64,000 nucleotides of DNA, taken from a virus (Duplodnaviria > Caudoviricetes). The DNA lies in the IMG/VR virus record IMGVR_UViG_3300043432_000083, positions 33,761 to 97,760 of that record; one strand, given 5' to 3'. This document shows, in pieces, positions 3,900 through 55,597 of this stretch. Below the pieces are notes generated by a model. The model worked only from the letters and a program-made list of their open reading frames with translations. It made no database searches and was not told the DNA's origin. Every line of letters starts with the position of its first letter. Position 1 is the stretch's first letter. The position numbers were made by a program, and so were the translations under genes.

Positions 3900-5951
3900 T
3901 CATTCAATGCTACTTTTGCCCCCCCCAACGGCTATAACGCCGCGTCCAGCATGACTTTGTCCTATATGGGCGGACTGTCCCATATCGGCCTTGATATGTC
4001 CAGTCGTTACTATACCACCTTGCGACCCTGGACGCACAATCGACACAGTCCATGAATCGGCAACCGCCCCAGATTCCCCACGCTCGCGTTGGCTGATAGT
4101 GAGAGCATCCAGTCGGTCGATGAGTGACATCAGTTCTGTCAAGACACGATGGTAATCATCCTGCCCAATATTTGCAATTGTGCTGTCTTGCGCCAGTACC
4201 TGATCGAGCAGACTTCGGAGTACGGACGCCGCACTGCGAGCCGTATCTGCCGTGAATGCCTGCTCAGGCAATGTTCGGCTCAGCGATAGGATGCTTGGCA
4301 GCAAATCTCCTGCAAGGGATGTCTCAGTGATGTCACGCCGGATATGCAGGACAGAGGCTGGTTGACTTCCCAGCGTAAACTGATCGAAGGTCTCGCGTGA
4401 CTGTGTAACAGATCGGTGGGCATGATCCCACCCAAGCACCTCATCAAGCAACGCTCGGAAGGATATGAGGGTGTGCTGTTCTTTATCATCTGTTGGGATT
4501 GCATCCAATACAACTTTCAGATAAGTAAGCTGTGCGGTCAGAAGCCAGACGTCTGGCACATGAACACGCTCAACAACTATCCGGGATAACGCAGACAGCG
4601 ACTGAATTACATCCATCGCAGATGTGTCGTCAGCAATCTCGCGGTATCGTGTTGTAATTTGGGAGGTTAAGTCTGCCCATGCCGACGACTCGCAGAGAAG
4701 TCTTACGAGAGTCGTCGATGCCTTGAATACTTCCGACGCTTCGCAGGCGTCTATCCAGTCTCGCAGGATGACCGTCTGTTGTGATGTGGCATCAATACCC
4801 TGTAACCCATCAAGCAATGCGCGTAAATGAACAACTGCCGCTGCCGACAGTACCGCATCATTCGCCGCTAACCCATCTAGCTGCGTTCTAGCCATCGCCG
4901 CATATCGTGCGATCACATCACCATACTGCATCACTTCTTGAAGTGTGCGGCTCATATGCAGTGAACGGCTCGGATCGTCTGCTGCAAGCATGCCCTCAAT
5001 GAGATTTCGCGTCGCGCCTACGGTTCGATTATCGCTGTCCTGGGTGCGGAACATCTCCGACACATCGCGCATGACCGATTGAGACACTGGAAGATTGTCC
5101 AACAGCGCGAAACCCTCATTGTACGTTCGATTAATAGACAACAGAGTATTGAGAACTTCCGTGTGTATCATCGAATCGAGAATCATTCGAGAGTAGGTCT
5201 GTGATAATTCTGGAACATAAACCGATGCGCTGAAGGTATCTGCCGCATTGCCCGCGACATCCGACAACTGGCGAATAGCCCATACTTGCGCCGAAACGTC
5301 GTCTTGCATGACTGGCACATTCGCAAGTGCGGTATCGAGTAATGCTCCAAACTGCGCCGTGATGATCGACGCGGAGGTGCCAGTCGAGATCAATGCATTG
5401 CGGTTGACGTTCCCCCAAGCGGTCGAGATCGCCCAGGCCATCTGGACGAAGAGATATTCGCTGTTCGCCGTAAATTGGCCAGGACTGAATGAGAGGGTGG
5501 TCAATCGCCCAGAGGTTGTCGTGCTTAAATCTCTTAGAGTCGAGCATTGCACATTCGTCGTGATCTCTGTCGCGGACGACCCATTTTGGTTGGGGCTGCG
5601 ATAGAGCCTGACGCGCATATAGCCGCGCCCGGTGGTATCGGCACTGGTGTCACCGATCAGGAAGGCAAACGACCAGGCTTGGTTTCCAAATGTCCCATAG
5701 TAGGCGCTTTGCGTCCTGAAGGCATCTCTAGTCCCAAGCGTTCCAGCGTTCGGCAACAGTCCGTTAGATGTGAAGCTACCCGTAGGAGCTGTTTGCAATG
5801 CACCGAGTAACGCAGACTTCGAGGCGGCCTGTGTCCCATGCGTCCAGCCGGTCCCGGTCTTGAGACTGGCAGGGGCTGTAGCCGTCAGCATCATATGGCT
5901 GCTGACGCCTGCGACGGTATTTTGAAAATACAGTTGGATTGTTGAGGCCAT
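3900..5951 (-). CDS. Ser/Thr-rich virion protein with ~20-aa degenerate repeats (fibre-like)
   Basis: S/T/G-rich ~200-aa N-domain, then many R-x-[LI]-x-[DE]-x5-D units. Confidence 0.6.
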   Translation of the reverse strand: MASTIQLYFQNTVAGVSSHMMLTATAPASLKTGTGWTHGTQAASKSALLGALQTAPTGSFTSNGLLPNAGTLGTRDAFRTQSAYYGTFGNQAWSFAFLIGDTSADTTGRGYMRVRLYRSPNQNGSSATEITTNVQCSTLRDLSTTTSGRLTTLSFSPGQFTANSEYLFVQMAWAISTAWGNVNRNALISTGTSASIITAQFGALLDTALANVPVMQDDVSAQVWAIRQLSDVAGNAADTFSASVYVPELSQTYSRMILDSMIHTEVLNTLLSINRTYNEGFALLDNLPVSQSVMRDVSEMFRTQDSDNRTVGATRNLIEGMLAADDPSRSLHMSRTLQEVMQYGDVIARYAAMARTQLDGLAANDAVLSAAAVVHLRALLDGLQGIDATSQQTVILRDWIDACEASEVFKASTTLVRLLCESSAWADLTSQITTRYREIADDTSAMDVIQSLSALSRIVVERVHVPDVWLLTAQLTYLKVVLDAIPTDDKEQHTLISFRALLDEVLGWDHAHRSVTQSRETFDQFTLGSQPASVLHIRRDITETSLAGDLLPSILSLSRTLPEQAFTADTARSAASVLRSLLDQVLAQDSTIANIGQDDYHRVLTELMSLIDRLDALTISQRERGESGAVADSWTVSIVRPGSQGGIVTTGHIKADMGQSAHIGQSHAGRGVIAVGGGKSSIE

Positions 5952-5954
5952 TGC

Positions 5955-8900
5955 CTAGATGTACTCCTCGTCCCAGATTACAGCCAAATCTCTGACACCA
6001 CCCATCACCAAGGTCTCCAAATCTTTCTTGTCAGCCATTCGCCCAGTGTAGACGATCTCCCGTGGCTGGCCATCTACACCGCCCACCTTCAAGACGATTT
6101 GCACCTCAAACCCGCGACGGAGGACTTGCAAGGCTTCGTTGTAGTATTGCAATCCATCTGTGGCCATCTGATGTGTCGCGCCCAGGAAATCCTTGCGATA
6201 TGCCTCAATCGCAGTCTCCAGATACTGAATAGCCGATGGTGTCAAAGCTCCTTGATTCCGCTCCGACTCGTATCGAGCCAAATGAATCCAGTCACGGATC
6301 ATCAGGAATTTGCCGAGGATACGGTCTGGATACTGGGCTCGATCACGGAACATGAGTTGGATATTCCGGTCGAAGCGACCGCGCCGCCCGGTCTCCGTGA
6401 GGTAGCCGTCATGGGCGATATGGACATCAGACAGGACGATACTCTGGCCGACGGAGTGGTTCAGGGCTAATTCTGGATGCTCATGCACAAACCCGTAGCA
6501 CCTGATTCCCGTTTCCTTCCCATTCAACCATATTCGTCGGAAGAATCGCACTGGCAAGTCCGGCTTAAAAGCATTCGCTGGCACTGCACTGAAATGATGT
6601 TGCTGAATCGCAAAACCGTTATAGATCGACCATCGAAGATATTTCGGCAAGTTCTGAGCGTCAAGAAGCTCCTCGTCTGCGTCGATCCAATGAATAAAAT
6701 CTCCGGTCGCTCGCTGCCATCCTCGGTTTCGCACAGCATCAAATCCAACTTGCAATGGATTCTGTCCCTGCCCAGGCTCAATACCAAACCGTCGCAGTAT
6801 TTCCGGCGTCGTATCAGTTGAGCCGGTATCATCAACGATGATCTCGTCACAATAGGGAGCAATCGACTTCAGGCACCGCGTCAGCAAGGATTCCCCATTC
6901 TTGACGATCATCGCTCCAGTGAGGCTGAGTTGTGGCGATTGAAGCCACTTGCGACGTTCCAAGTTGAGCGTGCTGACAGGCATCAAGGCTTTCTTTGTAT
7001 AGCAATTCAACAGCCACGCCAGGGGTCGGTTGTCGTATTTCGACAAGGCCCCACCTTCGACAATCATCGCCAACAAGTCAGACTTGCCACCCAACATTTC
7101 CTTGACATCATGGCCGTCAAAGACCCATCGGCGCTTTCGTGGCTCGCCTCGATGGAGTCTGTCTTGCTGAACCCCAGGACAGGCCGTTACGAAGCAGATA
7201 TGGCCGCCATCATTCGTCAGATATTCAGCATCCTTGATATGCTTGAGTGGATCGATTGAGCAATCAAGGCTTTCAACGCCAACCACGAAATCCGCCTTGC
7301 CATCCCGCACCGACTCTGTGCTAAGCATCTGTGCAAGATGGTCCGCGATTATATCGCCATTCGCGCCAACGCCCCTGATGGTCTTTGGTTTGTATTGTGC
7401 CGCAACATTTGCCACGGCATGATAGAGATGGTCGGTTGGCAGCCGTGGAGCATCCTGCTCCATACGCTCGACTTCATCTTTATGACGGAATGCGGTTGTT
7501 TGTTCAGGCGTCAAGTCTGGTAATATCTTTTCAACGCCGTTGACATCGCCCAATCGCCACCAGTGCCTGACCAGCCTGAGTTTGTCCTTCGACCGTAGCT
7601 CGATAGCCCCAAGCAGGAAGTGCTCCCAATCTTCCGCTGCTCCTGACCAATCGTAGTGCTCGGCCCCATTCCGGCCAGCGTCTGACATACGCTTGTTCAG
7701 TAGATCATCGCTGATGACGTCCCAGGCGGCGTCAACGAATCGATTGACGAAGTCCGGCGTGGCAGACTTGCTAGGATGCTCAACTAATCTAGCGAATCCA
7801 TCAGCAAGACTGGTCGTCTCTGGCAAGGCTCCGAGGGTGGATGCGACCACCGGAAGTCCGCAGGCAGCAGCTTCCATCGTAGTCAAGCACGAGACTTCCT
7901 CGAAATTGTTAGATGGGTATAGAAGCACCCTCGCCCTCGAATACAAGCCATACAATTCAGACTTCTTCAACGCCCCAAGCCATTTTGCTCTTGGTCCCAG
8001 GTTCGCCATAAGCTGCTGACAATGCTGGTAAAATGGGGCGAGCGATTCGACGGTATTATTGTAAGCGGCCACATATAGCGTCAGGTTCGGATTGCGCTCC
8101 AAGAGTTTCGGGAACACCTGGGACAACAACACATCCAGTCCTCGTTCAGGACGGGAGGCATAGACGATGGCATTTTTGTCCTTCTGGCCACGCTTATCTA
8201 TCGACTTCCTCACGAAATCCAAATCAATCCCGTTCCGCATTGGGGCCATGATCTCCGGTGGTAGATCGTAGACCTTGCAGAGTTGTCTCGCGTGCCAGTT
8301 CGAGACTGGGACAATATAGTCCACGTTCCATAGGCTTGACCGGAACGGCACATGGAACCGTTTCAACCCAAGGTCATGGCACCACAAGATATTCAGCTTG
8401 CTCTGCAACGCCAGATTGAACCCGGTCGGCTCCCGCTGGATGATACTGATGTCGTGTGGGGTCGAGCTTGCATAACGGACATAGTCTCCAATAGGCAAGT
8501 AGGTCACGCCATCGAATTTCCCTGGCTGTCCTGGTAGATTCGAGAACACAGTAACACTGTGGCCCCGCTTCGCCAAAGCTCTGCATAGTCCAATCGCTGC
8601 TGACTCTGAACCGCCAAGGTCCTTCGTCCGATCTGTCTGTCCATCAAATGGCATCCCGGCGACCGCCATCAAGATTGACAGCTCCTTCACCGGAGGCGTC
8701 GAGGTGCAGGATGGCACCGGGAAACGGTCAGGGAGCGGTTGGGCTTCGATGATTGGCGCGGTCGCTGTCGGTGCAGTTGCTTTATCAGTGTTGATCTTGC
8801 CACCGCACACGTCCCAGAGATAGCTCGCCATATCAGCCCATGATGTTCCTGCGCTACCTGTCGAGCCTTCAACATCGTATGGCCGTTCCTTGAGCACGCG

Positions 8901-10661
8901 GACCAATTCAGCGGGGAATCGTTCATGGCCACACTTCACGCCATGCTTGACGGTTTCACTAAGCACCATCGTCGGGACTACCACCGGATAGCATCCAGAC
9001 CATTGCGCCTCCAGCGCCGTCTTGCAGCATAGCTCTCCGCCCGTGCAAGGATAGGCCCAGACTTCAGCTTCCGCAAATTCTTTCAGTGCATCAGTATGGG
9101 CAATGCGGCCAAGGTGAACGACGCCGGGCTGCTGCAACATCTGCTCAATCCTGCCGCGCTCACGTTGCATGCTCTCCCGAACAGGAGCCGCAACGACGGC
9201 TTCAGACCGTTTCCAGAAATCCCAGCCATAGGTGACATGCAGTTCGGCATCAGGAACTTGTGCCTTCACGTTCGGCCACATCTCTAGGAGTTGTGCCAAG
9301 CCACGGTCATAGGAGGACGCATACAGCACCCGGTTCCTAACTTTTGGATGGGCAGCAACAGCTTCAGCGATCTTCTCTGTATCTACACCAAGCCAGTGTT
9401 GATAGGTCTTGGTCGGATTAACCCACGGACAGGCTTTAAGAAGTTCCTGCCGATGGTACTCACTGATACAGAGGACCGCATCGAGGCTGTCCATCAACTT
9501 CGGCGGCAAGAAGGTGGCCGCTTGTCCAGGAGCAGGAAGATCGGTGGTCCAGAAGACCTTCGTCGCTGCTGGGATATGCACCATATCCAATGATTTGAAC
9601 AGGATCAGTACGTCCCGGTCGGCCTTTGGATTCTGATCGCGGCCAAGGTAGGTCACGCCGCCGATTTCTAGGCCGTTATCCGGGCCGTTCTTATAGACTG
9701 TGACCTCATGACCCTGTATAGCCCAGGCTTCAGCGACCTTGACGACCATCTCCTCGGACCCGCCAAGGCTCTCAGGCTGAAGCGGCGTCCATCCACCAGT
9801 GACATGACCACAATGGATGCTCACGGTGGCCCGTCGGAAGCTGATCGTCCGGTTCGCGTAGGACTGGCCCTGATCCTGTTCCTCGATCAATTCGTGATCG
9901 ACCACCTTGTGCAATCCAGCCTGCTTCGCCAAGTCAATCAGGTCTTGCTCGCTGAAGACGCGCAGATGCTCTCTGGCATCCTCTAGCTTGCCGTGATGCG
10001 GGATTGGGGTTGCTGGAACGCTGATGTACAGGATGCCGCCTGGGGCGAGGTGCTTGGTTGCTGTCTTGAGACAGGTTAGAGGATCAAGGACATGCTCCAA
10101 GACTTCGGAGATGAGGACTGCGTCGAATTTCGGAAACATTGCGACAGAGCCGTCTCGCTGTGTCCATTGCTGCAACTCAAATTCTTCAATGGGACACTGG
10201 ACGAATGTGAGATCGAACCCCCACTTGTTTGCTCGTTCCTCAGCAACATCAACGGCTTTGGTACACAAATCGACCCCGACACCCTTGATCCCGCTCGCCG
10301 CCAAATTGAGCAGCTGCCACCCGTCCAAACATCCCAAGTCCAAGACCGTCTGATGCTTCCGCTCCAGGATCAGTTCACGAATCTTGGCGAACCGTTTCAC
10401 TTGTTCATGGCGTCGGAAGATTTGATCCTCTGGACAGACCCCACCTCGCATCGTCCTGTAATACTCCTGATAGGCTTCAGGAGAGTTTATGTGTGCCGTC
10501 AAGGATTCGATTTCTTGGCGAACAGGATCGCTTGTTGGCAGAATTGATACGCCAAGCCGCGCCTTTATCGCCTGATCCCGCTCGATCAGTCCTTTCGGAT
10601 CGTTCATCACTTCTTTATAATCTGTCAATTGCTCTGGGTCCGTCATTGAGTTTTCAGTCAC
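5955..10661 (-). CDS. Multidomain SAM-methyltransferase / GT4 / GT4 / degenerate MTase / GT2 protein
   Basis: VLDLGCLDG and SEVLEHV (class I MTase); two GT-B units (YASSYDRGL..ELCCKTALEA; YASRPERGL..EVSCLTTMEA); GT2 (MIVKNGE..DTGSTD..WIDADE). Start reassigned to GTG 10661 (GGAGG RBS, GTGA overlap). Confidence 0.9.
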   Translation of the reverse strand: MTENSMTDPEQLTDYKEVMNDPKGLIERDQAIKARLGVSILPTSDPVRQEIESLTAHINSPEAYQEYYRTMRGGVCPEDQIFRRHEQVKRFAKIRELILERKHQTVLDLGCLDGWQLLNLAASGIKGVGVDLCTKAVDVAEERANKWGFDLTFVQCPIEEFELQQWTQRDGSVAMFPKFDAVLISEVLEHVLDPLTCLKTATKHLAPGGILYISVPATPIPHHGKLEDAREHLRVFSEQDLIDLAKQAGLHKVVDHELIEEQDQGQSYANRTISFRRATVSIHCGHVTGGWTPLQPESLGGSEEMVVKVAEAWAIQGHEVTVYKNGPDNGLEIGGVTYLGRDQNPKADRDVLILFKSLDMVHIPAATKVFWTTDLPAPGQAATFLPPKLMDSLDAVLCISEYHRQELLKACPWVNPTKTYQHWLGVDTEKIAEAVAAHPKVRNRVLYASSYDRGLAQLLEMWPNVKAQVPDAELHVTYGWDFWKRSEAVVAAPVRESMQRERGRIEQMLQQPGVVHLGRIAHTDALKEFAEAEVWAYPCTGGELCCKTALEAQWSGCYPVVVPTMVLSETVKHGVKCGHERFPAELVRVLKERPYDVEGSTGSAGTSWADMASYLWDVCGGKINTDKATAPTATAPIIEAQPLPDRFPVPSCTSTPPVKELSILMAVAGMPFDGQTDRTKDLGGSESAAIGLCRALAKRGHSVTVFSNLPGQPGKFDGVTYLPIGDYVRYASSTPHDISIIQREPTGFNLALQSKLNILWCHDLGLKRFHVPFRSSLWNVDYIVPVSNWHARQLCKVYDLPPEIMAPMRNGIDLDFVRKSIDKRGQKDKNAIVYASRPERGLDVLLSQVFPKLLERNPNLTLYVAAYNNTVESLAPFYQHCQQLMANLGPRAKWLGALKKSELYGLYSRARVLLYPSNNFEEVSCLTTMEAAACGLPVVASTLGALPETTSLADGFARLVEHPSKSATPDFVNRFVDAAWDVISDDLLNKRMSDAGRNGAEHYDWSGAAEDWEHFLLGAIELRSKDKLRLVRHWWRLGDVNGVEKILPDLTPEQTTAFRHKDEVERMEQDAPRLPTDHLYHAVANVAAQYKPKTIRGVGANGDIIADHLAQMLSTESVRDGKADFVVGVESLDCSIDPLKHIKDAEYLTNDGGHICFVTACPGVQQDRLHRGEPRKRRWVFDGHDVKEMLGGKSDLLAMIVEGGALSKYDNRPLAWLLNCYTKKALMPVSTLNLERRKWLQSPQLSLTGAMIVKNGESLLTRCLKSIAPYCDEIIVDDTGSTDTTPEILRRFGIEPGQGQNPLQVGFDAVRNRGWQRATGDFIHWIDADEELLDAQNLPKYLRWSIYNGFAIQQHHFSAVPANAFKPDLPVRFFRRIWLNGKETGIRCYGFVHEHPELALNHSVGQSIVLSDVHIAHDGYLTETGRRGRFDRNIQLMFRDRAQYPDRILGKFLMIRDWIHLARYESERNQGALTPSAIQYLETAIEAYRKDFLGATHQMATDGLQYYNEALQVLRRGFEVQIVLKVGGVDGQPREIVYTGRMADKKDLETLVMGGVRDLAVIWDEEYI

Positions 10662-11488
10662 TTGGACACCTCCTGCATCATGCGGTGAGTGGTTTGATTC
10701 TGCGATATTACCGTATTCGCCCAATACCGTTCCTTCATCATGTTGTACACGATCTGATCTGGTCGATGATGATTCACCATCACGTCTGGTCGATGTTTCC
10801 ACTTCTCCGCGAACCGCTCCCAGTCCTGGATTTCAATGTCGGTGTCTTGGCTGGCAGTGTGATCCGCTCGGCGACTACGCTTATCAAGGTGCAAACATCT
10901 CGCGGCATCCGTTACGCCGTATTGCAGACCAGCATCACGGACTCGCTGTGCATAATCTGTGTCTCCATAACAGACATACATTCCTGAGTCGAAGTAGCCG
11001 ACCTTCTCGATGCACTCTCTGGTCATCAGGAATGCGGCTCCGTTGTAGGTTGAATAATCGACCTTCTCCGCTGGCTCAGGCTCCTCATACAGTTTCCACA
11101 GATCGTCGAATTGGTCGCTGACGACTCTAGGTCCAAGGAACGCGCAACCCGAATCGTCCTGAATCGCATCTAACAACGCCAAGGCGTCAGGGGCCAGCAG
11201 GATATCTGAGGTCAAGATGAATATCTTCTCCGATTGTCCAGCCAATACCAGCCCCCGGTTCAGCGAGGTCCAGACGCCAAGATTCTTCTCATGCCGGATG
11301 ACCCGCGCCCCACGTCGCATGGCGTCAGCGAAGACCGCATCCATCCCTGGCGCCGTTGAGCAGTTGTCCAGCAAGACGACGGACGACACCAGCTTGTCAT
11401 GATGGGCGTTCGCCCAGTAATGGGCCAGCGTCGCCGCGAGGATAGCAGGAGCGTTCCTGCACGGTATCACCACGGACACCCTACTCAT
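10658..11488 (-). CDS. Glycosyltransferase family 2
   Basis: VSVVIP, LLDNCS, NLG...SLNRG, TSDI, GAAFL..EKVGYFD..YGDTDY. Confidence 0.9.
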   Translation of the reverse strand: MSRVSVVIPCRNAPAILAATLAHYWANAHHDKLVSSVVLLDNCSTAPGMDAVFADAMRRGARVIRHEKNLGVWTSLNRGLVLAGQSEKIFILTSDILLAPDALALLDAIQDDSGCAFLGPRVVSDQFDDLWKLYEEPEPAEKVDYSTYNGAAFLMTRECIEKVGYFDSGMYVCYGDTDYAQRVRDAGLQYGVTDAARCLHLDKRSRRADHTASQDTDIEIQDWERFAEKWKHRPDVMVNHHRPDQIVYNMMKERYWANTVISQNQTTHRMMQEVSK

Positions 11489-11588
11489 GTCTCTTGTCCT
11501 TTTTCAACTGCTCCCACCGCTTCAAGCACTGCTCGCACAAGGGAGGAATGCCAAGGCATACCGGACAGACGGAACGAATATCGGTCAA
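11481..11588 (-). CDS. 35-aa CxxC...CxxC micro-protein
   Basis: TTG-start MTDIRSVCPVCLGIPPLCEQCLKRWEQLKKDKRHE fills the gap, overlapping both neighbours. Confidence 0.5.
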   Translation of the reverse strand: MTDIRSVCPVCLGIPPLCEQCLKRWEQLKKDKRHE

Positions 11589-12376
11589 GGCTTCCACCCT
11601 TCCGCCAGCTTCACCTCAAATGCCTTGACCTGCTCCGGTGTGCCGAGACCATGAAACTCCTCAACTGGAATCGCCCGGATGTTGCGTTGGTGTCGTTGGG
11701 CATGGTTCGCAGATGGGGCCAGATAAAATTCCCCGTTGGTTCGGTCGTTCTTGACGACCATTGAGCAGATCGCAGTTACCAGATCACCGGTCCTCCGCCA
11801 CCAATAAGCTCCACACGTCGCCATATCTGAGACCTGCTTCTTTTCCACGACCTGCACCACCATATCGGTCCCGTCTGTCACCACGTAGCTCCATTGAGGC
11901 CCGGTTCCAGGAAACGTCAAAATGAATCCATCAAGGTTATCAACCATCGCCTTGTTGTGAATCGCTTCCAGATTGCACTTGATCCACTGATCGCTGTTGA
12001 GGATCAGCACAGGATCATTCGGGGGCAATCCCACCGCAGCCGCTAGGACAGACATGGCTGCACCTTGCGTCGGACCTGGGATGACACAGGTTCTGATGGA
12101 TGGCCATTGGCCGCTATCATCAGTCCAAGACCAGTCCCATAATTCGTCTTGCAACAATCGCCCATCGCTGTTATCTTTCACCACCGCAATAATTCCGTCT
12201 CGCCAAGCAGAGGGCACCACATCCAATACCCAGTCCAGCATCCGCCGCCCGCCAACCGGGATCAGCGGCTTCGGCTCTTTGTAGCCTTGGTCTTTGAAGC
12301 GTTTGCCTTCGCCGCAACACGGGATGATGATGTGCGGGATGCTGTCTTTTTCACGGGTGTTTTCGGCTCTGTCCAC
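11585..12376 (-). CDS. Sugar-phosphate nucleotidyltransferase (GT-A fold)
   Basis: IPCCGEGKRF..PKPLI, NSDQ, WSYV, EKK.VS, NGEFYLAP, GLGTPE. Confidence 0.88.
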   Translation of the reverse strand: MDRAENTREKDSIPHIIIPCCGEGKRFKDQGYKEPKPLIPVGGRRMLDWVLDVVPSAWRDGIIAVVKDNSDGRLLQDELWDWSWTDDSGQWPSIRTCVIPGPTQGAAMSVLAAAVGLPPNDPVLILNSDQWIKCNLEAIHNKAMVDNLDGFILTFPGTGPQWSYVVTDGTDMVVQVVEKKQVSDMATCGAYWWRRTGDLVTAICSMVVKNDRTNGEFYLAPSANHAQRHQRNIRAIPVEEFHGLGTPEQVKAFEVKLAEGWKP

Positions 12377-12421
12377 GATTGGGAACCCTCCTGTGTGAGA
12401 TATTCGCCATAGTGCGTCACG

Positions 12422-13111
12422 TTATGCCACCACTGCTTGAGCTGGTGCATCCATGCCATGTTGTCGTGCTCCACCCGGCAATAACCTGCCGCGTCCAAGA
12501 ATGCGATGGATCAACCACGGTTCGACTTCATGTGGTCCTGCGACTTCAATCAACCGGCATCCGGCCTGCCGAGCCGCTTGCTTGCCTGCGTCCCCATCTT
12601 CAATGACGGTCATCTGTTCCGGCTGAATATGCCAGATATGGGCGGCCTTCTGATACATTTGTGGAGAGGGCTTGGCGTGCAGCACATCCTCATTGCTGAG
12701 GTAGAAGTCCATAAAGTTAATAATCCCCATGTTCAGCAGCACGGCCTGCACTGTGGCTCGAATGGAGTTCGAGCAACAACACATCTGCCAATTGGCATGC
12801 TTCAGCGTTAGCAGCAACGCGGTCACCTCCGGCCTCGGCTTCGTATCTGCCACCGCAATCAGTGTCGCTTCCTTCTTGCGGTGTTCAATGTCAGTTATAA
12901 CAGCCAGGTTATTCGGTATCCTCCCTATCTGCACCAACAGATCCACCTTGCGGCGCGTCGGCAGACCCTTAAAGGTGGACAAGTGTTCCTCCCAGGTGAT
13001 CGGCGGACAGTATGGGATCAATGCGTGGTTGACCGCCTCAAAATGGGCGACATCACTATCCCAAATGCAATTGTCGAGATCGAGCGCCAAATATCCCGCT
13101 ACATCACGCAT
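12422..13111 (-). CDS. HAD-family phosphatase
   Basis: DLDNCI (motif I), CSNS (II), KPSP (III), IEDGDAG (IV). Confidence 0.9.
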   Translation of the reverse strand: MRDVAGYLALDLDNCIWDSDVAHFEAVNHALIPYCPPITWEEHLSTFKGLPTRRKVDLLVQIGRIPNNLAVITDIEHRKKEATLIAVADTKPRPEVTALLLTLKHANWQMCCCSNSIRATVQAVLLNMGIINFMDFYLSNEDVLHAKPSPQMYQKAAHIWHIQPEQMTVIEDGDAGKQAARQAGCRLIEVAGPHEVEPWLIHRILGRGRLLPGGARQHGMDAPAQAVVA

Positions 13112-14120
13112 GGCAGAATTCCTCTAATGTTGGTCTGATCGTTCTCAAATCGGATGGTTTCGAGTATAGTATGGTCAACAAACGGTATCCCGCTTTTATG
13201 TATGCAGTATTTCTCTTATGATCTTTGTCTATATTTTTGTGCCAGTAGCTACCATCCAACTCCACGATCTTGCCTTGAGTTTCAGACAGAAAATCTGGAT
13301 AATGTCCAGCAACGCGCTTCGCATGACGACCCCCACCAGTAAACACCCACAACTCAGGCTGAATTTCGTCAAGCATGGCAAGTATAGCCTTCTCAGTGTT
13401 ATTTGGCTTTGCCATTGAAATCATTGATCTGGCACCATTTAATAATTGTTCGCGTTGAGCTGGGTCATTCCATCGTGCAAGTGTTTGCTTGCTAGTCTTC
13501 TTACGATTTTCAGGTAAACACTTCACTGCTTGTATTTTCTTAGATACCCTCTCTTTGTATTCAGGATCTTGCCATCTCGCTTTTACGGCTCTTATAATTT
13601 TCTGTTTTTCCTCTTCTGACTTTTTGCGACTCATGCGACCCTTCCAATTTGGATCGGAGGCTATTTGCTGCATTCTAATACGATGTTTCTTTCTGTATTC
13701 CTCATTATCCCAAATTTTCTGAAGTCTATTTGTCCGACGTGCTGCAATCTCAGGATCAGCCCATTCCTTTTTTCTTGCTTTACTCAGATTCTTCCGATAT
13801 TCATCAGCCTTCGGACTGTTCAGCAATTCCTTGATAGCCTTCTTATGAGATTCTGAAAATCTCTGCAATACTTCAGGCCGAGTTTCCTTACGTCCTTTAT
13901 TCCACGCCACTTGGCCAAGATGAGATATTCGCAATTTCTCTCTTGTCTCGGCTGATGCTTTTCTCCCAGTATTGGCTCGACCTATTTTCTCAAACATAGC
14001 TGCTTTTGTCTCAGGCGTCCTCCTGTTCCAAGCACCTTTTGACGCAGCACTTCTTCGTTCCTTTGTATATTTGCCAAGTGGATCAGTAGGATTTACTTTT
14101 TCCGCTGCTATCCGCTTCAT
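13104..14120 (-). CDS. Free-standing homing-endonuclease-like protein (NUMOD3 repeats + Vsr/DUF559-type nuclease)
   Basis: SAETREKLRISHLG..WNKG repeats; C-terminal YPDF...IVELDGSYWH..D..RN....GY; AT-richer than flanks. Confidence 0.8.
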   Translation of the reverse strand: MKRIAAEKVNPTDPLGKYTKERRSAASKGAWNRRTPETKAAMFEKIGRANTGRKASAETREKLRISHLGQVAWNKGRKETRPEVLQRFSESHKKAIKELLNSPKADEYRKNLSKARKKEWADPEIAARRTNRLQKIWDNEEYRKKHRIRMQQIASDPNWKGRMSRKKSEEEKQKIIRAVKARWQDPEYKERVSKKIQAVKCLPENRKKTSKQTLARWNDPAQREQLLNGARSMISMAKPNNTEKAILAMLDEIQPELWVFTGGGRHAKRVAGHYPDFLSETQGKIVELDGSYWHKNIDKDHKRNTAYIKAGYRLLTILYSKPSDLRTIRPTLEEFCHA

Positions 14121-14224
14121 TGCCCAATCCTGATTGTATCGATGATGATATACAGCGACAGTGCAGTGACAAGAAGACCACAAAGAATCAGCACCACAAG
14201 CATGATCCCCTCAAGCGATTTCAT
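14117..14224 (-). CDS. 35-aa single-TM micro-protein
   Basis: MKSLEGIMLVVLILCGLLVTALSLYIIIDTIRIGQ; ATGA overlaps at both ends. Confidence 0.55.
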   Translation of the reverse strand: MKSLEGIMLVVLILCGLLVTALSLYIIIDTIRIGQ

Positions 14225-14382
14225 GCGGCCTCCACTGGCTGCGGAATATGCTCCCATGTCCATTGACATCCTGGTGTCTGGCAGGACTGGGACAGTATCA
14301 TGTCACGACTGTCCAATGACCCGATCACTCGGTTGAGGCATTGCGGACAAATCAGCACCCACGGATAATCTTGCCTAGCCAC
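14221..14382 (-). CDS. Small Cys-rich hypothetical protein
   Basis: CPQC...CQTPGC; GTG start after GGAG RBS. Confidence 0.5.
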   Translation of the reverse strand: MARQDYPWVLICPQCLNRVIGSLDSRDMILSQSCQTPGCQWTWEHIPQPVEAA

Positions 14383-14650
14383 CAAACTCCCTCCTTGCCT
14401 TCGCCATGATCGATTCACAAGGAATGCCAGCTAACGCGCACCACATCTCCAGCAACATCGACGGAGTTTGCAGCCACTGCCTCGCCTTGTCGCTGTCGGC
14501 GTCCAGTGTGTTCACCCTCGCATCCAGCCATGCTTGTTCGATTACTGATTGCGCCAAGCTGACGTAGCCGCTGTGCCGCAGTATCTCATTCTCTCGTGTG
14601 CGGGTACGCAGGCGGAACACATCGTCCAGCGGGTTGCTTTCCATCGTCAT
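14375..14650 (-). CDS. Conserved-type small phage protein
   Basis: LAQSVIEQAWLDA..ARQWL..WCALAGI pattern common in phage hypothetical proteins. Confidence 0.6.
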   Translation of the reverse strand: MTMESNPLDDVFRLRTRTRENEILRHSGYVSLAQSVIEQAWLDARVNTLDADSDKARQWLQTPSMLLEMWCALAGIPCESIMAKARREFGG

Positions 14651-15384
14651 CGCGCAAACCAGGGATACCATTCCATCTCGTTAACCTTCGGCTCAGGGAT
14701 CTCGCCAGAGGCCAGCATGCCGATGACCGACGCGAACCCACATCCCCATTTCGTCTCCAACCACGTCCGGTTGAAGCCTTGTGCCTGCATGTTCTGGGTT
14801 GTTGGAGTCCCTCTATCCATGTGCTGCCAATGTCGATCTAATCCAATCGGATGATGACTCCAACCATGGGCATCAGAAATTGAGACCCGGTCTTTACTGA
14901 GTCCCCGAATTGCCCGCGCCTGCCAATCCCATTCCTGGAAGCCATTGACCACAAACCGCTCGTCGAACCAGCCAACCTCTCGCAGTACCTTGCGATTAAA
15001 CAGGAACGCCAAGTCCCCAGCCGGAGCGACATAGAGATCAGCATCATGCTGGGAGATCAGCTCGACCCATCCAACTTGAACCTCTACATCGTCCATCGAA
15101 CATAGCAGCCATTCGACTTCAGGATCACGGAAAGCCCACAGCATCGCGGTATTCCAGGTCCGCGACATATGGCCTGCCGACTCCGGCGTCCGCCCCATCG
15201 AAATGACCTGGCTGCGCTCCGGCAGTTCCACCCCTCGTCCCGTCTCTGGATGCCCGGCCAACAGATACAGATGGCGATACGTCGGAATCGTTCGCATCCA
15301 TCCTTGCAGCGTTCGCTCCAGCAATTCATTGCGCTTATGCCCAGCTATCGCTATGACTGTCTTTGAGAAGTTTACGCTGGGCAC
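14647..15384 (-). CDS. GT2-like glycosyltransferase
   Basis: SRTWN, SMDDV, VGWFDERF..GFQEWDW. Confidence 0.8.
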   Translation of the reverse strand: MPSVNFSKTVIAIAGHKRNELLERTLQGWMRTIPTYRHLYLLAGHPETGRGVELPERSQVISMGRTPESAGHMSRTWNTAMLWAFRDPEVEWLLCSMDDVEVQVGWVELISQHDADLYVAPAGDLAFLFNRKVLREVGWFDERFVVNGFQEWDWQARAIRGLSKDRVSISDAHGWSHHPIGLDRHWQHMDRGTPTTQNMQAQGFNRTWLETKWGCGFASVIGMLASGEIPEPKVNEMEWYPWFAR

Positions 15385-16229
15385 GATTCCATCCTTTTTA
15401 TGTCGACTGCAATCTCCGCCTCTATTGTCTGTCGTAGACCCTCGCTCAACGTCTTGGGCAGCCAGCCAAGTTTTCTTAGTTGGTAAGGGAAGGCTTCAAT
15501 CGCCATGGGTTCCCCACTTCGATAAGGCAATGCGCCAAACAACAACTTGCTGGTAGATCGTGTGTGGCAGCGCACTATCGTAGCAACTTCTTCGATAGAG
15601 GTGATATAGCCTGTTCCGCAGTCTAGCGTCACCGACTCCCCCTCTCCGCACAACTCCTTGCCACGTTCCGCCAGCGTCAGGAACGCCGACGCCACATCGC
15701 TGACATGAATGAAGTCCCGGTACTGCTGACCCGGCGTCAACGGTATGTCCTGATTACTGAGGCACTGCCTAATGAGATCATGAATAAACTTGCCGTCATG
15801 ATCCCCTTCGCCGTAGACATAATGCAGCTTGACGTTCAGGAATCGGGTAGAGGTACCTTGGCAGGCCAGCGTTGCCCATTTCGCAAAGGTCTTTTTCGAT
15901 AAGACATAAGGGGCCATATGCGTCGAATCTTCGGGCAGTGCCGTATCTGCTGCGATGAACAGCGGAACCTTGTTGACAATAGCTCGCTCCAACAGTCTTA
16001 GCGGACCATTCACGTTGTCCACCAACACATCTTCCAAACGGGATAAATTCTCACATCGTCCATGATTTGTCGCCAAGTGAACAATCGCATCGAGCCCACC
16101 GAACATCATCCCATATCCAGGTATATCGCTGTGTGGCAGCCGATACACATTCCAGTTTACCAACTCAAATGCTTGGCGGACATGCTGTCCAATGAATCCG
16201 CTGGCTCCGGTGATCAAAACGTCTGGCAT
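15372..16229 (-). CDS. NDP-4-keto-sugar reductase (SDR; abequose/paratose synthase-like)
   Basis: ITGASGFIG, YVLSK, VYG, GQQYRDFIHVSDV, FGALPYR. Confidence 0.85.
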   Translation of the reverse strand: MPDVLITGASGFIGQHVRQAFELVNWNVYRLPHSDIPGYGMMFGGLDAIVHLATNHGRCENLSRLEDVLVDNVNGPLRLLERAIVNKVPLFIAADTALPEDSTHMAPYVLSKKTFAKWATLACQGTSTRFLNVKLHYVYGEGDHDGKFIHDLIRQCLSNQDIPLTPGQQYRDFIHVSDVASAFLTLAERGKELCGEGESVTLDCGTGYITSIEEVATIVRCHTRSTSKLLFGALPYRSGEPMAIEAFPYQLRKLGWLPKTLSEGLRQTIEAEIAVDIKRMESCPA

Positions 16230-17497
16230 CAGACGACCTCAATCTCTGGAATTGGGATGATGAACTTGCCTCCACGTCGGCGATACTCGGCCTGCTGCGC
16301 CAAGATTTCCTCCTTGAAGTTCCATGTTAGCAATAAGGCGTAATCGGGCTGATCCTCTAACAACCGCTCAGGTGTATAGATCGGCAGCCGTGAGCCTGTC
16401 ATGTATCGACCCTGCTTCGCTGGGCTTTTGTCCACAACGTACTCGATCAGCTTGGTGCTGGCTTCAATTCCGCAACTGTTCAACAGGGTTCCCCCTTTGG
16501 CCGCTGCGCCATACGCCACAACGCGCTTGCCCTTCACAGCCAAATCAGTCAGGCATTGGATCAGGTTCTCCTGTGACTGCTTGACTCGTTCCGCGAATGC
16601 TGCGTAGGTTTGATAATCCTTGACGCCCCACCGATCCTCTTCATTGAGGAGCTGTATCAATCGAGGGCTCATCCGCCGAGTGGTCAGCATGTGGTAATGT
16701 TGGGCGTAGATGCGTAGGGACCCACCATGCGTCGGCAACTGCTCCACATCGAAGATGGCCAGCCCATGCGATAAGAACAAGGCTTTCAGCGCCTTCAGGG
16801 AGTAATAGCACAGGTGTTCATGATAACAGGTGTCAAACTCGCATCGGTCAATCAGTTCCTTAACATGCGGAACCTCGAAAACCGCCACACCCTTCTCTGC
16901 GAGGAGAGTGGCGACACCAGCTACGAAGCCGTTGGTGTCTGCGACATGCGCCAGCACATTGTTGCCCAGGATCACGTCGGCGTAGATCCCCTCCCAGGCC
17001 AATTCCTGTGCCAAGGTCTTTGTGAAGAACTCATTGCGGGTCGGGATGCCCTTCGCTATAGCCGCCCTAACTGGCCCTTCTGACGGATCAATACCGAGGA
17101 CTGGGATGCCTCTCGCCACGAAATGCTGAAGTAGATAGCCGTCATTGCTGGCAATCTCGACTGCTAGGCTTTTCTTGTTGAGTGCGAACCGATCAATCAG
17201 TGCATCTACATTCTGCTTGCAATGGTTCACCCATGCCTCAGACACCGAGGAGAAATAAGGATAATCAGTCTGAAACACCTTTTCCGGCGCAACCGTATGG
17301 ACAAGTTGCACCAGTGAACACTCTGAACAGAAGGCCAGGTCCATCGGATACCGAGGCTCCCGCTGGTCAAGCTGATCCTGCCTCAGCAAATGCCCGGACA
17401 GCGGCAGGTTGCCAAGGCTGAGGAATGTCTTGATGTCCGGCGAGCCGCAGGCCCGACAGACGGTAATGTCAGCATCATACTGTGCTTGGGTCTGCAT
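16229..17497 (-). CDS. NDP-hexose C-methyltransferase (TylC3/NovU-like)
   Basis: CRAC..CSECSLVQL Zn site, EIASNDG, NVLAH, YHEH, HGGSLR, YGAAAKG; start reassigned to MQTQ (TGATG overlap). Confidence 0.92.
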   Translation of the reverse strand: MQTQAQYDADITVCRACGSPDIKTFLSLGNLPLSGHLLRQDQLDQREPRYPMDLAFCSECSLVQLVHTVAPEKVFQTDYPYFSSVSEAWVNHCKQNVDALIDRFALNKKSLAVEIASNDGYLLQHFVARGIPVLGIDPSEGPVRAAIAKGIPTRNEFFTKTLAQELAWEGIYADVILGNNVLAHVADTNGFVAGVATLLAEKGVAVFEVPHVKELIDRCEFDTCYHEHLCYYSLKALKALFLSHGLAIFDVEQLPTHGGSLRIYAQHYHMLTTRRMSPRLIQLLNEEDRWGVKDYQTYAAFAERVKQSQENLIQCLTDLAVKGKRVVAYGAAAKGGTLLNSCGIEASTKLIEYVVDKSPAKQGRYMTGSRLPIYTPERLLEDQPDYALLLTWNFKEEILAQQAEYRRRGGKFIIPIPEIEVV

Positions 17498-18231
17498 CAA
17501 TCCTCCCAGGTTTTCCATGCTGCCTTGCCACTTTGCCACATGGCCTCCAGTTCTCTCCAATCCCGCTCGGTATCCATGCACTGCCAGAATCCGTCATGCT
17601 GATAGGCGGCAAGTTGGCCGTCCTTCGCCAGTCGCTGCATTGGGTCCTGTTCCCATTGGGTCTGATCGCCGTCGATGTAGTCGAAGACACCAGGCTCGCA
17701 GGCGAAGAAGCCCCCGTTGATCCAACCTCCGGAATGCTCCGGCTTCTCGGTGAAGGACGCCACGTCGTTGCTTGTCAGTATCAGTTCGCCAAATCGACCG
17801 CGAGGACGAACTGCTGCCACCGTACAGAGTTTGCCCTGCTCTCGATGGAAGGCCAAGAAGTCAGTCAGGTTCAAATCCGTCACGCCATCACACCAACTCA
17901 TCAGGAACGTCCCACGATGTTCCAACATGGGCTTGAGCCTAAGCAATCGACCGCCATTCTGCGTCCCATAGCCGGTTGAGCCTCGGTAGACCTTCCAATT
18001 GGATGGGAAGGCCATCGGGTCTGAGCAGTACCAATCGATCACCCATCCCATATGTCCCAGCGCCAGCATGAAGTTCTTGAACCCATGCCGACCGAAGTGC
18101 TGCATGATGTGCCAGAGGATCGGCTTGCCGCCAATCTCGACCATTGCCTTTGGTCGATCTGCGAAGGTGGCCTTCAGGCGCTCGCCGTTACCGCCACACA
18201 GTATGACGACTGGAACCGTGTTAGCGTCCAA
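17497..18231 (-). CDS. rfbF: Glucose-1-phosphate cytidylyltransferase
   Basis: LCGG.G.RL, PK.MVEIGGKPILWHIM, WINGGFF, GFWQCMDT.RD. Confidence 0.9.
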   Translation of the reverse strand: MDANTVPVVILCGGNGERLKATFADRPKAMVEIGGKPILWHIMQHFGRHGFKNFMLALGHMGWVIDWYCSDPMAFPSNWKVYRGSTGYGTQNGGRLLRLKPMLEHRGTFLMSWCDGVTDLNLTDFLAFHREQGKLCTVAAVRPRGRFGELILTSNDVASFTEKPEHSGGWINGGFFACEPGVFDYIDGDQTQWEQDPMQRLAKDGQLAAYQHDGFWQCMDTERDWRELEAMWQSGKAAWKTWED

Positions 18232-19363
18232 ACGCCCCGCTCCTTCCTGCGTCGCTATTCAACAGATGTGCCTTGCGGTCACATCGGCAACCACAATCCG
18301 CCATCCACGCTTCCTGTCGCGCCATCCATTCGGCCATCTGCTCAGCGGGATAGTCGTAATACAGGTCCCAGAATCCCTTGTCGGCCAGATTGCCCAATGC
18401 AATGGGTCGGAAATCCGGCGCTGCCGACTGCGAACAGGGATACAGCCAGCCGTCATAGCCGATGGTCGGGAAGACAAACCGGGAGACGCAAGGGAAGGTC
18501 CTCGATTGTCCGATCAGATCACGCTCCTGATCAGTGTCTGAAAACATGGTCTGGCACTCGGCGCTGCTCTCCTTATCCGTGACCGTCTGGATCATGTCCG
18601 CCCAGCGCAACCGCTCGTCTGGCGTTAGGAGCAAATCGGTGGCGCAATTGCCGCGAGGTTCCTGCGGGAAGGCGAAGCGCAGCACATCACAACCTGCCTC
18701 TCGGAAGTCCTGCACAAATCTCTGCATTTCCCCAAGTCTAGCATTCTCGCGGAACACCAAATAGGTCGCAGCGAGTTCAAATGGTCGCAAGAGCCATCCC
18801 CTCCGGACTTGGCTCAACGCTTCAACATTCTCCAAGACTCGACGGTATAGTCCGGTCCCGTAGACGCCCTGATGCACAATGCCGTAGATTGCATCTGATC
18901 CTGCATCAACGCTCACACTGACATAGCTCTTCCGGTGCATCATGCCAGATTCCAAACTGTTTAAGAGGGCATCTGACACTTTCAACGCCTTCGTGTTGAT
19001 TCCGACCGTGATGCCGCGACACACCGCCGCATTGAATAGATAGTCGAAGTCTGGTGAGTGCAGGGGGTCGGTTGCGTACCCGGCAAAGATGATCTTCTGC
19101 ACACCACCATCGATCATCTCAGTCAGCACGTCCAGCGCCCGGTCTAACGGGAGTCGGTCAGATACAGCTTGCGCAGATCCGCCATAGCAATGCGGACAGG
19201 GGAGCCAACACAACTTATCGGTCGCCGGTCCAGGCTGCCATTCAATCTGATGCGGCATCACAGTCTTGTTGAGGACCGAGGTCTTGAATACGGACCAGTC
19301 CGGTACATAATCTGCCGCATACTGATACCGGGCCAAAAAGAACTCTTCCATCATCACGGTCAT
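18221..19363 (-). CDS. Radical SAM enzyme with C-terminal SPASM/twitch-like Cys cluster
   Basis: CWLPCPHC (Cx3Cx2C), SVDAG, C...DGWLYPC..LGN, C-terminal CGCRC. Confidence 0.88.
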   Translation of the reverse strand: MTVMMEEFFLARYQYAADYVPDWSVFKTSVLNKTVMPHQIEWQPGPATDKLCWLPCPHCYGGSAQAVSDRLPLDRALDVLTEMIDGGVQKIIFAGYATDPLHSPDFDYLFNAAVCRGITVGINTKALKVSDALLNSLESGMMHRKSYVSVSVDAGSDAIYGIVHQGVYGTGLYRRVLENVEALSQVRRGWLLRPFELAATYLVFRENARLGEMQRFVQDFREAGCDVLRFAFPQEPRGNCATDLLLTPDERLRWADMIQTVTDKESSAECQTMFSDTDQERDLIGQSRTFPCVSRFVFPTIGYDGWLYPCSQSAAPDFRPIALGNLADKGFWDLYYDYPAEQMAEWMARQEAWMADCGCRCDRKAHLLNSDAGRSGAFGR

Positions 19364-19980
19364 GCCCACCATGCCCCTTGTGGATGGACAACAGCATCCT
19401 CGCGATTCAGTATCCGCTCGTACAGTGCTGGGTAATCTGTCACGATGCCGTCAGCCTGCATCCACTCTTCCAGCTTGGCCAGATCGACCGGTCGTCCGTG
19501 CAGTTCAGGAGATAGGACATAGGCTCGGAAATCATGCTCATGCAAGAGTCGAATATCCTCTGCTGACACCCAATCTTCATCCGGCTGTTCAAGCCATGCA
19601 CCCTGCTCGATGGCGTTCACATCTATCTGCTCACGCTGTGTCACAACCGTCAATGTCCCAGAGAGACCACAATAGGGATGCAGTGGACTGATAAATATTT
19701 GCATATTCGTCCATCCCTGCTTTGCGAGGGTGATCCTCATGTTCTGCACCGTCTCTTGGCTCTTCAGATGCAGGAACACTTGCTTGCTGAACTCTGACTT
19801 TGGGATTTCCCACCAGATCTCCGGTCGATCATGGCCCACGCGGAGGAAATTGTGATGCGCGCCCCAGACATCAACCTCCACACCCCACCCCTTATTTAGA
19901 GCCTCGTCAAGCGCACAGGGGTGATTCTGGTGACGTTGTTCTGGCCACCAACTTCCCCTATGGCAGATGATCTGTGTCAC
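19360..19980 (-). CDS. PLC/GDPD-like phosphodiesterase-fold protein
   Basis: ICHRG, EVDVW, GHD, HLK, SPELHGR, GIVTDYP. Confidence 0.75.
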   Translation of the reverse strand: MTQIICHRGSWWPEQRHQNHPCALDEALNKGWGVEVDVWGAHHNFLRVGHDRPEIWWEIPKSEFSKQVFLHLKSQETVQNMRITLAKQGWTNMQIFISPLHPYCGLSGTLTVVTQREQIDVNAIEQGAWLEQPDEDWVSAEDIRLLHEHDFRAYVLSPELHGRPVDLAKLEEWMQADGIVTDYPALYERILNREDAVVHPQGAWWA

Positions 19981-21637: not shown

Positions 21638-21649
21638 AGTTCACCCTCC

Positions 21650-55596: not shown

Positions 55597-55597
55597 A

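Follow-up and report, generated by a model that had tools for sequence, protein, structure and literature searches.

How does a tailed phage use sugar-synthesis and glycosyltransferase (GT) genes that lie among the genes for its head? The question is raised by IMG/VR record IMGVR_UViG_3300043432_000083, of which a 64,000-nucleotide stretch (positions 33,761 to 97,760; here called the window) was analyzed; it makes up the final 64 kb of a phage genome that is complete at 97,760 bp and has direct terminal repeats. The original prediction, made from the sequence, was that a self-contained 14-kb island between capsid and neck genes makes rare methylated sugars and builds a glycan coat on the virion. 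The island was found at positions 5955 to 19980 of the minus strand, between the genes for the major capsid protein (MCP) and Neck1 (Table 1), and sequence and fold searches recovered all ten of the genes that had been listed for it on that strand. Our analyses indicated that the island probably decorates a virion protein with a glycan that is methylated and in part built of branched sugars, as judged from sequence comparisons and structural models. Most likely, it represents virion-protein glycosylation by a new enzymatic type, in an expanded form of a system carried in the head modules of a large uncultured siphovirus group.

The central component is a giant enzyme of 1,563 amino acids (aa), whose probable start at position 10646 was placed by reference to an upstream stop at 10658. 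Residues are given here for the 1,615-aa open reading frame (ORF) P0001, in which the probable starting methionine is residue 53 (minus 52 for the 1,563-aa numbering). An intact S-adenosylmethionine (SAM)-dependent methyltransferase (MT) domain (∼136 to 298) is followed by a first GT-B domain (∼330 to 700), a GT4 domain (730 to 1043), a decayed MT domain (∼1100 to 1280) in which motif I and ∼37 residues have been lost, and a GT2 domain of the GmaR/SunS type with a helical domain (∼1285 to 1615). Homologues formed two groups: ∼18 full-length forms, some with inteins, and many proteins of ∼960 aa with a GT4-MT-GT2 arrangement and a helical C terminus. Alignments of the GT4-MT-GT2 family showed an invariant GT4 Glu pair, DxD motif, and MT motif I. 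By these comparisons, the giant enzyme reads as the ∼960-aa GT4-MT-GT2 module, with its MT decayed, to which an N-terminal MT and GT-B have been added. Four homologues (P0012, P0017, P0018, and P0025) were 300 aa longer and contained intein (PF14890) and HNH (PF13392) domains, which shows that inteins target the GT gene in related phages; the portal gene of the window phage is also an apparent intein target.

The GT2 and C-terminal module was aligned from 40 phages (alignment A7), the resulting profile was searched against PDB, and the module was folded. Residues D94, D96, and E97 were invariant in the 40 sequences. The best profile matches were GmaR (2.5e-32), SunS (1.5e-22), and ThuS (2.9e-22), with chondroitin synthase next at 1.2e-10. 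The AlphaFold2 (AF2) model of the module, with a predicted local distance difference test (pLDDT) score of 91.9 and helices at 190 to 281, matched SunS and ThuS in a Foldseek search of PDB at 9e-17 to 2e-15, with template modeling (TM) scores of ∼0.6 (0.61 to 0.63 for SunS) and 23 to 25% identity. The alignment to SunS took in ∼293 of 335 residues, helical domain included, and the runners-up, WrtF and TarS, were at 2e-8. Profile and model thus agreed on the two features of this group, a GT-A domain with a DxD motif and a helical domain. GmaR is the O-GlcNAc transferase of Listeria flagellin and SunS and ThuS are the S-/O-glycosyltransferases of glycocins, so that all three act on proteins or peptides. 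The comparisons support a place for the module within the GmaR/SunS/ThuS clade, and a protein acceptor is predicted because the three characterized relatives all glycosylate proteins or peptides; this was the strongest single argument obtained. Proteins of cyanophage, Dickeya phage, and giant viruses also have a similar fold.

The second line of evidence was the position of the gene. A scan of IMG/VR with the giant enzyme as a single protein returned one locus only, and alignments were hence used. A scan with the GT4-MT-GT2 family gave 254 hits, from which the best 80 loci, all near full length, were fetched and their ORFs called and clustered; at least 80 IMG/VR contigs therefore hold a full-length enzyme. 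This synteny survey bore out the capsid-to-neck position among relatives. Of the 45 loci having at least 3 kb of upstream sequence, 39 had the MCP gene upstream of the enzyme in the same orientation, with MCP cluster C2 being found in 52 loci, and connector or tail genes were downstream in 51 of 58 informative loci. In about half of those 51, the next gene started 20 bp or less from the enzyme stop. The common order was portal, protease, scaffold, MCP, 0 to 4 variable small genes, GT4-MT-GT2, a ∼165-aa protein, Neck1, tail terminator, a ∼319-aa tail protein, and the tape measure protein. In the window, where the ORF listing places every gene of the head and island region on the minus strand and tightly packed, the reading order is portal, MuF, g34, protease, scaffold, MCP, several small proteins, the island, a 683-aa repeat protein, and connector genes. 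A virion glycan coat is thus supported, though unproven, by the predicted clade of the GT2 module, by the fixed position between MCP and connector genes, and by the finding that no island enzyme has a membrane segment, all being predicted to be soluble.

No genome among 50,697 deposited phage genomes matched more than 34% of the GT4-MT-GT2 protein, and in the cultured phages that share this MCP type (CRP-6, KPP23, RDJL Phi 1, and Kovu) the MCP gene is not followed by a gene of this kind. The window MCP was at most 32% identical to those of GenBank phages, its matches being siphoviruses of Roseobacter, Pseudomonas, and Arthrobacter, with no close phage among them, and a near-identity search of GenBank phages yielded no match to the island. 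A broader proposition, on which we consider the evidence evenly poised, is that the gene for a GmaR/SunS-type GT fused to GT4 and MT domains counts as near-core in the head modules of a large uncultured siphovirus group, that virion self-glycosylation is common in the environment, and that some of these phages, including the window phage, add phage-made sugars with a 3-C-methyl-branched hexose by way of an uncharacterized radical SAM enzyme.

The same loci bear on two other uses of a GT in this position. Small variable ORFs were frequent in the MCP-enzyme interval, and the enzymes that match the module best in structure, SunS and ThuS, attach sugars to the precursors of bacteriocins, SunS itself being prophage encoded; both points would suit a system whose product is a glycopeptide of the glycocin kind or some other small glycosylated molecule. 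However, MCP and enzyme genes were directly adjacent, with no gene between them, in 12 of the 39 loci, and no peptide exporter, leader protease, or conserved small precursor was found, making such a product highly improbable. A gene among head genes could also encode a protein that is packaged in the head, injected with the DNA, and active on a host target early in infection. Here the nucleotide-sugar genes of the same gene string speak against the idea, as they would be sensible only for bulk synthesis in the producing cell. No signal for capsid targeting or for cleavage was noticed, although no search aimed at one was made, and we regard an injected giant enzyme as very unlikely.

Three consecutive, tightly coupled ORFs with signal-peptide-like N termini (..LPRLASA/QG, ..SHPAWA/GS, and ..PVMAFA/EE) are located between the head genes and the island on the minus strand (∼21332 to 20550, ∼20539 to 20201, and 20210 to 19977). 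In contig L003, the place of the first is taken by a protein of >441 aa that has YadA-like NTTGYxNSAxG repeats and a hydrophobic N terminus. The presence of these ORFs within the same tight gene string, and the action on flagellin of GmaR, the closest characterized relative of the GT2 module, raised the alternative that the substrate of the enzymes is a host protein, an exported protein, or an envelope polymer (flagellin, pilin, S-layer, O-antigen intermediates, or the three signal-peptide proteins), leading to receptor masking or phage exclusion. WbdA and WbdD count on the same side, being multidomain soluble GT4 and MT enzymes that assemble lipid-carrier-linked O-antigens at the inner face of the membrane. 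Nevertheless, the enzyme is fixed in the MCP-connector interval of very diverse phages, and relatives L004 and L005 keep the island in the absence of the signal-peptide ORFs. The Pfam and NCBIfam matches of the island ORFs included no flippase, polymerase, transporter, or lipid-carrier (polyprenyl-phosphate) GT family, and full-length matches in bacterial genomes, which came from many phyla, were all on contigs of metagenome-assembled genomes (MAGs). Overall, a host, exported, or envelope target appeared unlikely.

Phage GTs are classically DNA modifying, according to Pyle et al. (preprint 10.1101/2023.12.21.572611), and a GDP-mannose 4,6-dehydratase-like (Gmd-like) gene was detected in the replication module of the genome, flanked by a clamp-loader-like AAA ATPase and DNA polymerase A. 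Both observations would fit an island that puts sugars on phage DNA as a protection against restriction. Searches of the complete 97.8-kb genome, however, detected no route to a 5-hydroxymethylpyrimidine: PF00303 (ThyA-type hydroxymethylase) and PF00145 (C5 methylase) were absent, and PF12851 (TET/JBP) was not found, the last being a weak absence because the positive control was silent in every control genome. We know of no hydroxymethylation by the ThyX type of thymidylate synthase, which this genome encodes. DNA glycosylation is unlikely given the lack of a ThyA-like hydroxymethylase and a C5 methylase; moreover, the GT2 module groups with protein GTs, and the genes are in the head module, apart from the replication genes. 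The original prediction had argued against DNA modification from the late-operon position, and these results point the same way, leaving DNA as the least probable target of those considered. The replication module also contains, at 52491 to 56380 (minus strand), a uracil-DNA glycosylase (UDG)-family domain fused to a 3'-5' exonuclease (52491 to 53714), an N6/N4 DNA methylase (54682 to 55596), and the ThyX gene (55598 to 56380).

Candidate acceptors for virion glycosylation are a loop of the MCP (residues 138 to 166), the 683-aa product of g09, and the small proteins of the MCP-island interval, such as those at 21329 to 22072. The loop contains a TSxS-N[VLM]GS motif that was conserved in 46 GT-linked MCPs and absent from four GT-less relatives; it is only a lead, because the controls numbered four and the sequences are related. 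The g09 protein adjoins the giant enzyme and has an N-terminal 200 aa with 25 to 40% Ser/Thr and almost no acidic residues, followed by ∼40-aa helical repeats; gene order showed it to be absent from relative L006.

Several points weigh against a virion target. The comparisons singled out no acceptor. The MCP has neither a Ser/Thr-rich C-terminal tail nor a GT-specific insertion, its C terminus being like that of GT-less relatives, and the 80 loci showed no consistent Ser/Thr tract in genes near the enzyme; these comparisons covered the MCP and the genes near the enzyme, the major tail subunit being cut by the window end. BLASTP of Corndog gp33 to gp39, gp41, and gp49 against all window proteins gave nothing below an E value of 0.04. 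The three signal-peptide-like ORFs immediately upstream of the island suggest that a function connected with the envelope is encoded close by, as exported proteins are not virion parts. By analogy with GmaR, which acts on flagellin, and SunS, which acts on a secreted peptide, the protein target may possibly be a nonvirion one, and the whole case rests on sequence and predicted structure. A Ser/Thr acceptor tag of the mycobacteriophage kind was rejected, as there was no MCP extension or insertion and no recurrent neighboring tract, and so was homology to Corndog gp34 to gp38, which had no sequence similarity to island proteins.

Virion glycosylation has been demonstrated experimentally for mycobacteriophages Che8, Corndog, and Myrna, with Che8 gp110 and Corndog gp38 being GTs that modify capsid and tail-tube proteins, as stated in PMC12363180 and PMC12619734; it has only been suggested for other actinobacteriophages (PMC13313380). 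The window phage resembles the mycobacteriophages in having phage-encoded soluble GTs in the head module, and Corndog genes 34 to 38 are inside that module, between gene 32 and protease gene 39. We take the Corndog cassette to include a methyltransferase as well. Unlike the mycobacteriophages, the window phage has one GT4-MT-GT2 chain with a GmaR/SunS-type GT2, encoded after the MCP gene, an MCP that lacks a Ser/Thr-rich C-terminal tail, and its own nucleotide-sugar genes, including a C-branched route. The module shares with GmaR (PDB 22ao) and with SunS and ThuS (7msn, 7msp, and 7msk) a GT-A domain with DxD, HE.P, and H.GY..RN motifs, and with SunS and ThuS the helical domain too. It differs from all three in being the C-terminal part of a 960- to 1,560-aa multienzyme of phage head modules, with no tetratricopeptide repeat (TPR) array, antirepressor function, or bacteriocin genes. 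No description of a GmaR/SunS-type GT in phage head modules was found in the literature, of which our coverage was incomplete.

Chlorovirus PBCV-1 encodes A064R, a GT-GT-methyltransferase, together with viral GMD and GMER, and carries methylated N-linked glycans on capsid protein Vp54. Likeness to the window phage, compared by description only, is found in a virus-encoded multidomain GT and MT enzyme alongside a GDP-mannose 4,6-dehydratase, and PBCV-1 builds its methylated capsid glycan in the cytoplasm with no need of the host machinery. PBCV-1 is, however, a eukaryotic virus with N-linked glycans, and the domain order and families are unrelated.

The claim that the phage makes its own rare methylated sugars was likewise supported by sequence evidence, namely, a predicted 3-C-methyltransferase, an RfbF-like enzyme, a HAD and nucleotidyltransferase pair, and the intact SAM-MT of the giant enzyme. 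The full length of the 3-C-methyltransferase matched MtmC (PDB 4rv9; 2e-82 over residues 39 to 449), KijD1 (2e-71), and TcaB9 (1e-69), and the Zn-binding N-terminal, SAM, and C-terminal domains of the TylC3/TcaB9/MtmC family were all present. As in the TcaB9, MtmC, KijD1, and TylC3 pathways, this homologue adjoins a nucleotidyltransferase and a short-chain dehydrogenase/reductase (SDR). Unlike those pathways, the island has no adjacent 4,6-dehydratase, contains a distantly DesII-like radical SAM enzyme, and is phage encoded. The SDR was nearest in PDB to MoeE5 (3e-12) and GalE-type epimerases; it appears to be of the epimerase or 4-ketoreductase type and no clear 4,6-dehydratase. Because its closest relatives are epimerases, the SDR was rejected as the missing 4,6-dehydratase.

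The island could not, in fact, be called self-contained, because no 4,6-dehydratase is encoded within 5955 to 19980. The Gmd-like gene, ∼30 kb away, is the only one in the genome (sole PF16363 match). A complete 3-C-methyl-6-deoxyhexose pathway, with nucleotidyltransferase, 4,6-dehydratase, C-methyltransferase, and ketoreductase together, was thus not present in the island, and without a 4,6-dehydratase the island would be unable to supply alone the 4-keto sugar for the C-methyltransferase. The Gmd-like enzyme may possibly feed this step. The branched-sugar product is likely, from the gene content, to be a 3-C-methyl-branched hexose, and its nucleotide carrier is probably cytidine diphosphate (CDP), or guanosine diphosphate (GDP) via the Gmd-like enzyme, rather than deoxythymidine diphosphate (dTDP).

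The first island gene, g21, encodes a glycerophosphodiester phosphodiesterase (GDPD)-like protein. Foldseek of its AF2 model (pLDDT 84) matched GDPDs 3no3, 1v8e, 1zcc, and 5t9b with TM scores of 0.55 to 0.64, and the alignment showed that the catalytic pattern HRG..E.D..HD was kept (H7, R8, E35, D37, H50, and D51). Sequence searches gave a PDB phmmer match to 3no3 at 0.076, no Pfam match, and similarity of 0.95 to Atlas "GP-PDE" clusters. The TIM-barrel fold and HR..E.D..H pattern of the GDPD superfamily were therefore both found, in a protein that is short at 206 aa. Its position was conserved in relatives L004, L006, L168, and L177.

The extent of the island varied among relatives. Four IMG/VR contigs had MCPs that were 76 to 79% identical to that of the window phage; among them, L004 and L005/L006 (76 to 77%) have a smaller island at the same site, consisting of the GDPD-like, HAD, nucleotidyltransferase, GT2, and giant-enzyme genes and lacking radical SAM, RfbF, C-methyltransferase, SDR, and g16. 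Identities to the L004 and L005 counterparts were 62 to 64% for the HAD protein, 60 to 63% for the second nucleotidyltransferase (PDB match 4evw, an NDP-sugar pyrophosphorylase, at 1.9e-10), and 69 to 73% for the separate GT2. In two distant phage contigs, L168 and L177 (MCP identity of 33 to 34%), the genes for MCP, GDPD-like protein, radical SAM, RfbF, and C-methyltransferase occur in identical order. Next in L168 come SDR, three g16 paralogues, HAD, and nucleotidyltransferase, and L177 stops at the C-methyltransferase. As these contigs share its gene order, the extended island is present in a second lineage. The window phage carries the most elaborate form of the system among the loci compared.

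Other phages of the same group (L047, L050, L067, L034, L073 to L075, L082 and L083, and others) have a small radical SAM protein of ∼241 aa in the head module (cluster C10; 22 copies in 16 loci), and their head modules also hold FkbM-type methyltransferases (C34) and extra GT2s (C36). Genes of these three clusters are located in the portal-protease interval or adjoin GT4-MT-GT2.

The radical SAM enzyme of the island matched only weakly in PDB, its profile giving SkfB at 3e-6 and DesII at 5e-6. To our knowledge, DesII is the sole radical SAM enzyme acting on nucleotide sugars with a solved structure. An IMG/VR scan with the island protein alone recovered no locus. In 80 metagenome loci with members of the family, a nucleotidyltransferase was alongside in 56 and a C-methyltransferase in 39. 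The cassettes of these loci (L168 to L247) also include a 357-aa 4,6-dehydratase, GT2, a GFO/IDH/MocA oxidoreductase, a DegT aminotransferase, and FdtA/RmlC-like proteins. By sequence, the enzyme would belong to an uncharacterized family tied to nucleotide-sugar cassettes and distantly DesII-like; the family is apparently large, occurs in aquatic bacteria, and would mark a bacterial branched- or amino-sugar pathway that has so far gone unstudied.

Under virion glycosylation, the first sugar would be attached by the GT2 module, in the cytoplasm and at a late stage of infection, to a Ser, Thr, or Cys residue of one of the phage structural proteins. Lengthening of the glycan would fall to the GT4 domain or domains, and its O-methylation to the methyltransferase. 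In the clade of the window phage, another sugar, drawn from a nucleotide sugar that the phage itself makes, may be attached through the GDPD-like protein, the separate GT2, and the pair of HAD and nucleotidyltransferase. In the window phage, and independently in L168/L177, a cassette of RfbF, 3-C-methyltransferase, SDR, radical SAM, and GT-A would add a 3-C-methyl-branched hexose, whose 4-keto intermediate would have to be provided by the Gmd-like dehydratase or the host, outside the island, or else by the SDR or the radical SAM enzyme.

Glycosylation of virions alters how antibodies, and probably also grazers, enzymes, and surfaces, perceive phage particles, and the experimental record so far consists of a few mycobacteriophages and giant algal viruses only. 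If virion glycosylation by this system is real, it would be a common trait of environmental phages and not a peculiarity of mycobacteriophages. The GT4-MT-GT2 gene that follows the capsid gene is a new marker, seen in uncultured contigs and in no deposited phage genome; because it is recognizable, the prevalence of sugar-coated phages can be tested by simple surveys. The predicted placement of the enzyme in the protein-glycosylating branch of GT2 gives a mechanism that can be assayed, and the window phage, with the richest version, gives access to a branched-sugar pathway whose unstudied radical SAM enzyme is common in aquatic bacteria.

Table 1. Positions in the 64-kb window of the island, head, and related genes, in reading order
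Feature	Coordinates	Strand	Matches and remarks
Gmd-like GDP-mannose 4,6-dehydratase	49853-50821	-	PF16363 5e-116; TIGR01472 2e-111 (372 bits, cutoff 415)
Portal	30623-34516	-	
MuF	27567-30377	-	
g34, 292 aa	26520-27398	-	MuF-protease gap; candidate very divergent GT-A, lead only
Prohead protease	24112-25749	-	
Scaffold	23593-23970	-	
MCP	22569-23570	-	phrog_1005 2.1e-60; upstream anchor of conserved synteny
g21, 206 aa, GDPD-fold protein	19360-19980	-	First island gene
Radical SAM enzyme	18221-19372	-	PF04055 2.5e-10; CxxxCxxC and four more conserved Cys
RfbF-like sugar-1-phosphate (glucose-1-phosphate cytidylyl-) transferase	17497-18231	-	TIGR02623 4.4e-76 (256 bits, below curated cutoff of 300); PF00483 2.5e-13
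Predicted NDP-4-keto-hexose 3-C-methyltransferase (TylC3/TcaB9/MtmC type)	16229-17581	-	PF08421 8e-22; PF13489 9e-16; PF08484 4e-58
Short extended SDR, 285 aa	15372-16229	-	PF01370 6.7e-25; GxxGxxG and YxxxK present
g16, 245 aa, divergent GT-A candidate	14647-15384	-	PF10111 (GT2_2) 9e-4, weak
g15, 98 aa	14375-14671	-	No Pfam match; tblastn 45% identity in L004
g14, 359 aa, free-standing homing-endonuclease-like	13104-14183	-	Lys-rich NUMOD3-like repeats and DUF559/Vsr-type nuclease; PF04480 5.8e-5
HAD hydrolase/mutase, beta-phosphoglucomutase family	12422-13111	-	PF13419 5.5e-25; TIGR02009 2.5e-21; core island gene
Second sugar-1-phosphate nucleotidyltransferase	11585-12376	-	PF00483 1.3e-9; core island gene
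Separate GT2, 276 aa	10658-11488	-	PF00535 2.9e-10; PF13641 1.9e-9; core island gene
Giant enzyme, 1,563 aa	5955-10646	-	MT, two GT-B, decayed MT, GT2
g09, 683 aa, candidate acceptor or fiber	3900-5951	-	Adjoins giant enzyme; no Pfam/PHROG match
Neck1	607-1260	-	Connector gene beyond island

The count of six GT domains given by the original prediction held in part. Four of the domains are solid by sequence, and the two others, g16 and g34, are counted as leads because their matches were weak. For g16, no match to PDB sequences was found, and one of its three paralogues in L168 reached PF10111 at 1e-4; it is probably a divergent GT-A enzyme, on weak support. The g34 product had been read as a GT2 between MuF and the protease. 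Language-model similarity placed it nearest to viral GT2-like clusters of the Atlas (0.94 to 0.95), and hhalign (E value of 0.014) aligned its EDD..GWL to the DXD of true phage GT2s from the same slot, a slot that in other phages holds true GT2s or FkbM methyltransferases (mixed alignment). A GT-A-like character is thus suggested, but g34 was not accepted as a GT2, with Pfam, PHROG, and PDB giving no match and the profile alignment being weak.

Cotranscription of the island genes, also part of the original prediction, is compatible with the gene overlaps across the island and with terminator-like sites that were not above chance; it is inferred from this arrangement and unproven, and the promoter and terminator scan of the island, with counts at chance level, was uninformative. 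Two island genes, g14 and g15, had not been listed before. The g14 gene lies in a low-GC stretch (GC of 0.49 at 12001 to 14000) with a promoter-like site at 14172 to 14145, and its L004 counterpart is a 131-aa remnant without residues 67 to 318; it is a selfish insert and no glycan gene. In L003, a close relative, an ORF of 386 aa at 3962 to 5122 (minus strand) resembles IS200/IS605-type TnpB, a call made from the sequence alone; it is inserted between two head-accessory genes, which it opposes in direction. Finally, two paralogues of ∼170 aa with 21 to 22% Ser/Thr were found on either side of the connector genes in the window (1260 to 1760 and 3306 to 3833, minus strand; phrog_5417, with a weak match to tail-fiber phrog_4176), and in L006 a homologue of these paralogues comes directly after the giant enzyme.

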